A stretch of DNA of 64,000 bases from Octopus vulgaris (lineage: Eukaryota), in contig OX597818.1 in the NCBI GenBank assembly GCA_951406725.2, positions 84,568,001 to 84,632,000 of the forward strand, read 5' to 3'. This document shows, piece by piece, positions 28,857-30,293 of the stretch. Position numbers and translations under genes: made by a program. Position 1 is the first letter of the stretch. Each line of letters opens with the position of its first letter. Under the pieces are notes generated by a model, which saw only the letters and a program-made list of their open reading frames with translations, was not told the origin of the DNA and searched no databases.

Positions 28857-28930
28857 TGTCTCTGATGATGGAATACCCAGTGTATGGTGATGACGCTTCA
28901 CCTGGATATCCCAGAAACGGCTGTAAGACA
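28857..28930 (+). ncRNA. type I hammerhead ribozyme with canonical core
   Basis: Stem I tgtct/agaca; CTGATGA (28862-28868); extended stem II tggaatacccag...ctggatatccca; GAAA (28914-28917); stem III cggctg; GUA triplet with predicted cut after 28925. Confidence 0.85.
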
Positions 28931-29131
28931 TTAATTACTTCTACTTCTCCATATTTTGATTCACCTTATTCTAATTAAATATTCCAAATGACCTAAGATA
29001 TTCGTCCTGCCTTGGTTTTGTTGTCCATTTTCCTTTAATATATATATGTATATATGTATATGTGTGTATGTGTGTGTGCATGTGTGTGTGCGTTTGTGTG
29101 TATGTGTGCGTGTGTGCGTGTGTGTGTGTGT

Positions 29132-29166
<35 letters not shown>

Positions 29167-29169
<3 letters not shown>

Positions 29170-29496
29170 TAATCAATGAAATCCCAACTTAGTCTGATTT
29201 TAGAGTTTTATTATTTGCAATTTTTGCTAGTTTACAATTTTACAATATTGGAAAACTAGTACTTTCATGTCTTACACGATCATCAGGTTTAAGTAATGAC
29301 AGTCGTGTTCCATAATTGACAGCTGTGATCAATGGCAGTTGTCAGAAGTGGAACACGATTGCCACTATGTAAACCTGATGACTGCGTAACGTACGAAAGT
29401 ACTAGTTAATTTCAAAATTGTAAAATTGCAAAATTGCAAAACTTACGAATAATAAAACGTGAAAACCAGACTAAGTTGGAATTTCATTGATTAATA
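29167..29496. ncRNA. about 330-bp palindrome with two divergent minimal HHRs (29253-29290 minus; 29371-29407 plus)
   Basis: Arms are complementary end to end (tattaatcaatgaaat.ccaacttagtctg and cagactaagttggaatttcattgattaata). Each arm reads aaac-CTGATGA-short stem II-GAAA-GTAC-TA-gtt, with palindromic stem III and CUA triplet. Confidence 0.85.
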
Positions 29497-29535
29497 TATT
29501 GTTCTATACACAATCATACAAACTCGATATATATA

Positions 29536-30293
29536 TCTTCTCTATATATAAAACTGAAATACGTTTGGACCGCTTGGATCGCTTTCAAGGCCACTACATC
29601 CCGTCCGATTGACTCCAAAATTTACAGGGGCAGATAAAATAAGGTGACGATGCTAGGTGTCGTTGCTAGGGCCAAAAACCCACTTTGACAATTCCACTCC
29701 CATTCTTTAATGTATCTGTCTTCCTCACTCACTCACGCTATTTCCTCCCTTCCCAGCACTTTTCCACTCACTCTATTTCCTACCTTCCCATCACTTTCAC
29801 TTCGTCAAACGGCGTTCTTTTATGTATCTGTCTGCATTCATAGAGAGATTTATCATCGCTACCACCACCACACAATCATGACAACAAATATTATGAATCT
29901 CGCCATCGCATTCTATTGTCTGCCTGTCAACGCGCCGATGGAGCAAATACAAACAGAACACACCAACGAGCGTTCGTGTTCTGGTGATAACGTAGGTTTT
30001 TCGTATCTATTACATTTTAACATTTATTTAGAACCCTGCAAATTTTTCGTGCTAAATTTTCATTTTTTACTACTTTATTATTTTTTCTTAAATTGATGCT
30101 TTTATTAAAATTAATTCTAATTGTCTGGGTCAACAGTTCGTTTCCTCGGAGGATATGGAAATTCCTATTAACCGTCAGAGAAATAACTCCAGCAGCTCAC
30201 AACTATTTCAACAAAGACAAGGTTACCTGCTTACCAGTCGAATTCAGCGTCAACGCTCACGTATGAGAGACATTCCAACACACACACACACAC

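Follow-up and report, generated by a model that had tools for sequence, protein, structure and literature searches.

The window analysed here, a 64,000-nucleotide stretch of the Octopus vulgaris genome (contig OX597818.1), contains at positions 29167–29496 a near-complete inverted repeat of 330 bases that folds as one rod (Table 1). Both strands were folded and give nearly the same RNA, with minimum free energies of −157.9 kcal/mol (plus strand) and −165.5 kcal/mol (minus strand) versus shuffle means of −59.9 and −56.8 kcal/mol (z = −18.5 and −23.6; equally good shuffles 0/100). The whole-element palindrome of the original prediction is thus confirmed, and its almost complete self-complementarity holds for the arms, which are 79% alike, but not for the element as a whole, as a tail of about 30 bp is found on the right side only. 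The 8 extra bases at the junction resemble the arm's own TCAATTG and are likely a templated insertion, comparable to the short inserts at some junctions of the young family described below. The copy itself holds no ORF. Rfam returned nothing at gathering level within the window and no hammerhead family at E ≤ 10 in 28900–29800, where only hairpin-driven miRNA-family noise was seen.

Table 1. Features of the palindromic locus, and overlapping frames of the related young Penelope-like element (PLE).
Feature	Position	Strand	Basis
(TA)n/(TG)n microsatellite, left flank, target-type sequence	29040–29166	.	sequence
Left arm, tailless inverted PLE terminal segment, putative RNA 5′ end (29326) to element end (29167)	29167–29326	−	
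Left minimal type I hammerhead motif, running 29286→29257: core 29286–29280, GAAA 29266–29263, UA 29258–29257	29251–29292	−	
Inter-arm junction	29327–29334	.	sequence versus other copies and young-family junctions
Right arm, PLE terminal segment, putative RNA 5′ end to element end	29335–29496	+	
Right minimal type I hammerhead motif: core CTGATGA 29375–29381, stem II 29382–29394, GAAA 29395–29398, GTAC 29399–29402, TA 29403–29404, predicted cut after 29404	29369–29410	+	
One-sided PLE tail of about 30 bp	29497–29526	+	comparison with sister-family tandem arrays
Short (AT)n-rich right flank	29527–29550	.	sequence
Overlapping frames of the young PLE	L110 5861–7222 and 3627–5951; L115 5907–5960	− (L110); + (L115)	

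Directly to the right of the palindrome, positions 29535–29900 consist of very high-copy repeats with a summed contig depth of up to 3 × 10⁵. Among contigs from two sequencing runs of unspecified kind, one spans 29191–29379 with a single difference and another, carrying a different organism label, spans 29172–29496 with 9 differences and 28 gap letters, which weakly suggests an old insertion. Two runs guessed to be RNA yielded short pieces only, mostly from other copies of the family.

Each arm carries all 13 core nucleotides of a hammerhead (CUGANGA, GAAA, UH), the AGUACU palindrome of stem III and the AAC/GUU of stem I. To this extent the two canonical cores that had been claimed are present, but the base of stem II departs from the canonical form: positions 10.1/11.1 are C.C in the right arm, which reads as decay, and U.U in the left arm, instead of a G10.1-C11.1 pair. 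Stem I extends over 3 pairs in the right arm and 4 in the left before the first mismatch. Stem II has 4 bp in the right arm; in the left arm two of its four pairs are broken (C.A and G.G) and no helix is predicted. Compared with the family majority, the two arms differ in 13/127 and 13/125 columns, none of them in common, and the difference in stem II between the arms, correctly noted before, is therefore independent decay rather than design. Forcing the hammerhead fold upon the whole element costs 35.5 kcal/mol (plus strand) and 45.8 kcal/mol (minus strand), so that the rod wins the competition that had been proposed between the two folds; the probability of the hammerhead fold in the whole element is about 10⁻²⁴ or less. 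In the window copy the hammerhead is thus expected to be trapped in the rod, and it is decaying.

A second, unrelated type I hammerhead motif, missed in the original prediction, lies 240 bp upstream of the palindrome (28858–28929, plus strand). It comprises a 4-bp stem I, CTGATGA, a long stem II with a U-A base, GAAA, a near-palindromic stem III and UA, and it is probably the end of a different PLE family.

The element was searched against its own 2.8-Gb genome. At least 82 matches were obtained when 40 of 705 candidates were scored, with 68–87% identity except for the window's own match at 100%, and the exact 22-base core pattern occurs 120 times (control: 0), so the element is multi-copy. 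Twenty-five distinct loci picked by this pattern comprise 12 palindromic and 13 one-armed copies. Most copies of this old family show U.U at 10.1/11.1 (T at 10.1 in 49/67 and at 11.1 in 60/67), a 4-bp stem II and a 6-bp stem I. The one-armed copies share up to about 1.4 kb of upstream sequence, some with 5′ inversions, and this sequence contains a disrupted reading frame that encodes a C-X4-C-XX-C linker and a GIY-YIG motif. A stop-free piece of 110 aa scores E = 0.008 against PF01541, which is under the cut-off, and is 59% identical to a 698-aa RT plus GIY-YIG protein (E = 2 × 10⁻²⁹; 1 match among 14 candidates). A non-exhaustive search for full-length copies of the old family found none, and tandem units were not seen in it.

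In a tail census of 29 old palindromes, 24 had both ends recognisable; exactly one tail is present in 22 of these, none in one, and both in one, the latter with a borderline microsatellite score. The ends usually adjoin (TA)n or (CA)n, as do the flanks in the window and most listed flanks, as judged by inspection. Differences between the arms of one palindrome amount to 15.3% versus 17.4% between palindromes (p = 0.06, 25 palindromes), and homogenised-looking arms occur in this set at L060 and L002 only. At L060 (G000:C3:173654392-173654515) the two arms have 10 private changes in common and only 1.7% difference between them, likely as a result of inter-arm conversion or of a divergent source.

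In order to compare decay in the cores and flanks, duplicate loci (L013, L038, L042, L047, L051, L059, L061, L074, L075, L085 and L086) were dropped, L002, serving as reference, was excluded, and the pattern-picked set was set aside as biased. Core decay is lower than flank decay among copies picked by BLAST (4.2% vs 8.3%, p = 2 × 10⁻⁴); among copies picked by their upstream sequence the values are 8.8% and 13.0% (p = 0.11; A/T sites alone, p = 0.024). As all 13 core bases are kept in 7/16 arms of the latter set, two intact cores within one copy are not unusual. Core conservation is thus equivocal: its excess can be accounted for by seeding bias together with selection acting on the source elements, and there is room for some selection on the cores after insertion.

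By means of the 110-aa piece of the old family a young sister family was found (150 scored of 13087 candidates), about 71% identical over 107 aa. Its 775-aa frame matches RVT_1 with E = 2 × 10⁻⁶ (27.9 bits, cut-off 29.6) and GIY-YIG with E = 3 × 10⁻⁵. The C-X4-C-XX-C linker, which conforms to the CX2-5CxxC pattern, is present between RT and EN in the old and young families. The young element occurs in 4271-bp tandem units, that is, pLTR-forming partial tandems, in which the tail follows the pLTR ahead of the upstream ORF, and in head-to-head pairs spanning 2.2–5.2 kb with the tail on one side. Its end and tail are 86% identical to the end and tail of the window arm over 85 bp. A 454-aa upstream frame and the 775-aa RT/EN frame, which is in −1 relation to it, overlap by about 90 nt, and the overlap contains 7 consecutive T; the pair is a candidate for −1 ribosomal frameshifting, and the legend of Fig. 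1 in PMC8557442 mentions a frameshift-separated ORF1 for PLEs. A different PLE-like frame with a CxxxxCxxC linker adjoins a young-family palindrome (L113 4930–5799, minus strand).

The hammerhead of the young family retains U.U and AGUACU and shows one compensatory pair change each in stems I and II relative to the old family; the form common to the family has a stem I of 5–6 bp and a stem II of 4 bp. Two compensatory events between two lineages are a modest sign that the fold was selected in the source elements. In the youngest and most uniform subfamily the hammerhead combines U4C with U.U (L115 4451–4500), and there are 1122 exact copies of this form. Among 86 young arms, 47 belong to the U4C and 28 to the older U4 subfamily. 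The combination of U4C and U.U is expected to weaken cleavage, yet this subfamily has spread.

On these grounds the palindrome in the window almost certainly originates from a PLE. Its arm corresponds to the terminal repeat (pLTR) of such an element and the window copy to a decayed, pLTR-only inverted insertion of Neptune/Nematis type, as judged from RT, GIY-YIG and linker features, a placement that keeps Neptune and Nematis together. The undescribed, ribozyme-bearing palindromic mobile element that had been suggested is accordingly mobile-element derived and multi-copy but very probably not an element of its own.

In the young family, 95 loci are palindromic about the same centre, ACAGTC; applied to the predicted cut site of the ribozyme and to a control site upstream, the same test gave 0 and 1, respectively. 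In both families this point lies 30 bp below a TATA-like box (L026 3935/3965; L115 4388/4418), for which reason we infer that it is the transcription start, a placement made from motifs and truncation statistics rather than from RNA ends. The element's own upstream sequence is absent from 92 of the 100 listed matches, out of 189 in which ACAGTC is not preceded by T (hand tally). Copies that possibly begin at the cut site make up 1 of 3 and about 2 of 10 listed matches for two patterns, both of which sample part of the copies; overall, hardly any genomic copies start there.

The first 30 nt or so past the putative start (L115 4418–4450 and the arm start of L002) are predicted to form a hairpin of at least 7 bp in both families, with differing loops. 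Furthermore, in about 21 one-armed young copies that start at ACAGTC within (AT)n, the preceding base is G in 8 and C in 13 (hand tally; T is excluded by the search pattern). The G in these 8 copies is supplied by neither the element nor the target and is possibly a copied cap.

Junctions were examined in 46 of the 95 young loci, 6 of them supplied directly by the palindrome scan and 40 picked from the first 50 that it listed. One tail is present in 40 of the 46; two-sided tail scores were obtained for two loci, of which L161 is real and L186 a CA-repeat artefact. Relative to the tail, the centre of the 40 one-tailed loci reads GACTGTC in 17, GACAGTC in 15 and otherwise in 8, and each subfamily shows both of the main phases (10:7 and 7:8, hand tally). 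The arms differ by 1.3% within a palindrome versus 3.2% between loci (p = 4 × 10⁻¹⁰), and subfamily variants are shared by the two arms of each young palindrome. In L113, a long palindrome, the extra bases at the centre are part of the tailless arm. Junctions vary from copy to copy in the old and the young families alike; the phase statistics are those of the young family, the centres of the window's family being more decayed.

The window copy is very probably a decayed, non-coding insertion of an EN+ PLE in which an end segment of about 165 bp was doubled head-to-head, the likely route being that two cDNAs of one uncleaved RNA were joined at the RNA 5′ end. In such a scheme the pLTR promoter would initiate RNA at ACAGT, 30 bp below the TATA-like box, and the RT/GIY-YIG protein would cleave both strands of a (TA)n target and prime at both ends, starting from two internal sites that flank the tail. 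The two cDNAs would run off the RNA 5′ end, and their nearly self-complementary 3′ ends would anneal and be repaired, sometimes with small templated inserts. The product would be one tailed and one tailless arm, joined anew in each insertion. The hammerhead would be a passenger, its likely working context being the tandem full-length transcript, where it could act as a dimer via AGUACU. Priming on both strands is carried over by analogy from an element of the Poseidon clade (PMC11167929), for which cutting and extension of both target strands, two adjacent internal RT start sites bracketing the tail, and a predominance of unprocessed RNA as template are described.

Of the readings that share the PLE origin, the two-cDNA route to the palindrome is held to be rather probable. 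A second arm arising when a single cDNA, or an antisense RNA, folds back and primes itself is considered unlikely. It would account for arms that always share subfamily variants, it could make use of a cDNA end that is nearly self-complementary and of the hairpin possible at the RNA 5′ end in both families, and inverted-junction palindromes have been read as self-priming in PMC3846280; the centre of the old copy L014 is compatible with fold-back or with a later deletion. Fold-back can, however, give rise to the tailless arm only, so that the junction phase should be fixed, and a fixed phase is likewise expected if a master palindrome is copied. The observed 17:15 argues against both and fits two cDNAs, although the one-base centre could be flipped by post-insertion recombination between the arms, which would mimic a random phase. 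The extra central bases in the tailless arm of L113 also speak against fold-back.

That the 330-bp palindrome is instead a non-autonomous element in its own right, copied as a unit and carrying a ribozyme for each polarity, is very improbable and largely refuted. Many copies of similar length with the same ends, and the lower core decay in one of the copy sets, would suit it. Against it stand junctions that differ among copies and show both phases in both subfamilies, one-armed copies that begin at the same point, a continuum of palindrome lengths up to 5 kb that includes ORF sequence, and arms which, in the window, have decayed independently within a rod that practically excludes the hammerhead fold. 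The viroid-like, ambisense design drawn upon in the original prediction is not upheld either: the two hammerheads are a single motif that inversion has doubled, and the genomic evidence accounts for the layout without a replicating RNA. A foldback or MITE-type DNA transposon with long terminal inverted repeats and an incidental hammerhead-like motif, which an inverted repeat over the whole element, the lack of coding capacity and TA-rich flanks might suggest, is refuted with next to no probability left to it, since the arm is continuous with the RT/GIY-YIG frame, the tail makes the ends asymmetric, where symmetric terminal inverted repeats would be expected, and the 5′ truncation is variable, as is typical of reverse transcription.

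Two cDNA copies of a single RNA thus remain the preferred origin, and a broader reading is on balance favoured by a little: the palindromes would be a genomic record of PLE insertion, in which one RNA is copied twice, from both target strands and from starts bracketing the tail, with the cDNAs running to the capped 5′ end and annealing by way of a near-palindromic start sequence. If so, PLE inverted repeats would be explained without antisense RNA or self-priming, and uncleaved RNA would be the template in vivo, even in the subfamily whose hammerhead combines U4C and U.U. Taken alone, the window copy is unremarkable, decayed transposon DNA; it is the young family that bears on the formation of PLE inverted repeats and tails, which PMC8557442 calls undefined, and it predicts a start site, two-ended priming, a random junction phase and the dispensability of ribozyme cleavage. 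Scans of animal genomes for rods of the 'ambisense ribozyme' kind will catch PLE debris.

Much of this arrangement has precedents. Inverted, 5′-truncated PLE copies with a tail of 30–40 bp, often at one end only, and a bias towards microsatellites are reported in PMC8557442, together with the Zn-finger-like CX2-5CxxC linker of Neptune/Nematis and hammerheads in pLTRs. Head-to-head inverted pLTRs with junction palindromes and a one-sided tail are described in PMC3846280, where self-priming on an antisense template is proposed. Minimal PLE hammerheads were defined in PMC4209133, which reports low dimer activity and, in Schistosoma, pairs of minimal hammerheads on opposite strands about 100–700 bp apart. 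A promoter and start in the terminal region, called TATA-less, are given for Drosophila Penelope in PMC2377424. PLE inverted repeats and opposite-strand hammerhead pairs are therefore already published, and it is the junction statistics that are new and testable; a literature search of incomplete coverage found no published description of minimal palindromes centred on the start site, nor any of junction phase.

The closest known systems are the EN+ Neptune/Nematis PLEs as presented in PMC8557442 and PMC3846280. These share with the present families the RT with C-terminal GIY-YIG, the CX2-5CxxC linker (here in the linked copies), partial tandems, head-to-head inverted copies, a 30–40 bp tail at one end, microsatellite targets, a hammerhead in the pLTR and TATA/Inr-like motifs in the pLTR. 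The window insertion differs from what is shown there in having been reduced to two terminal segments without an intervening ORF, and minimal palindromes of this kind accumulate at a single centre, as in the 95 young loci.

The hammerheads resemble the minimal type I ribozymes of metazoan PLEs, as characterised in PMC4209133 and PMC6765202, in their open stem I and very short palindromic stem III, for which a dimer is expected. In contrast to these, G10.1-C11.1 and a clear single bulge before stem II are lacking here; both families have U.U, and the youngest subfamily has U4C as well. U10.1-U11.1 and U4C are listed in PMC3088659 as natural hammerhead variants outside PLEs, and such PLE variants may already have been described. 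With non-LTR retrozymes, as outlined in bioRxiv 10.64898/2026.07.22.740005, the window element has in common that it is non-coding, PLE-derived and equipped with a type I hammerhead. Those, however, are head-to-tail tandems, which enable dimer cleavage and circles, whereas the short-unit loci examined and the window element are head-to-head, the latter with one sense hammerhead per strand. Finally, a rod-like fold with a hammerhead motif in each strand is also seen in viroid-like RNAs with ribozymes in both polarities, at least in the accounts available; these are circular, replicating RNAs, whereas the element in the window is chromosomal DNA whose motif was doubled by inversion.
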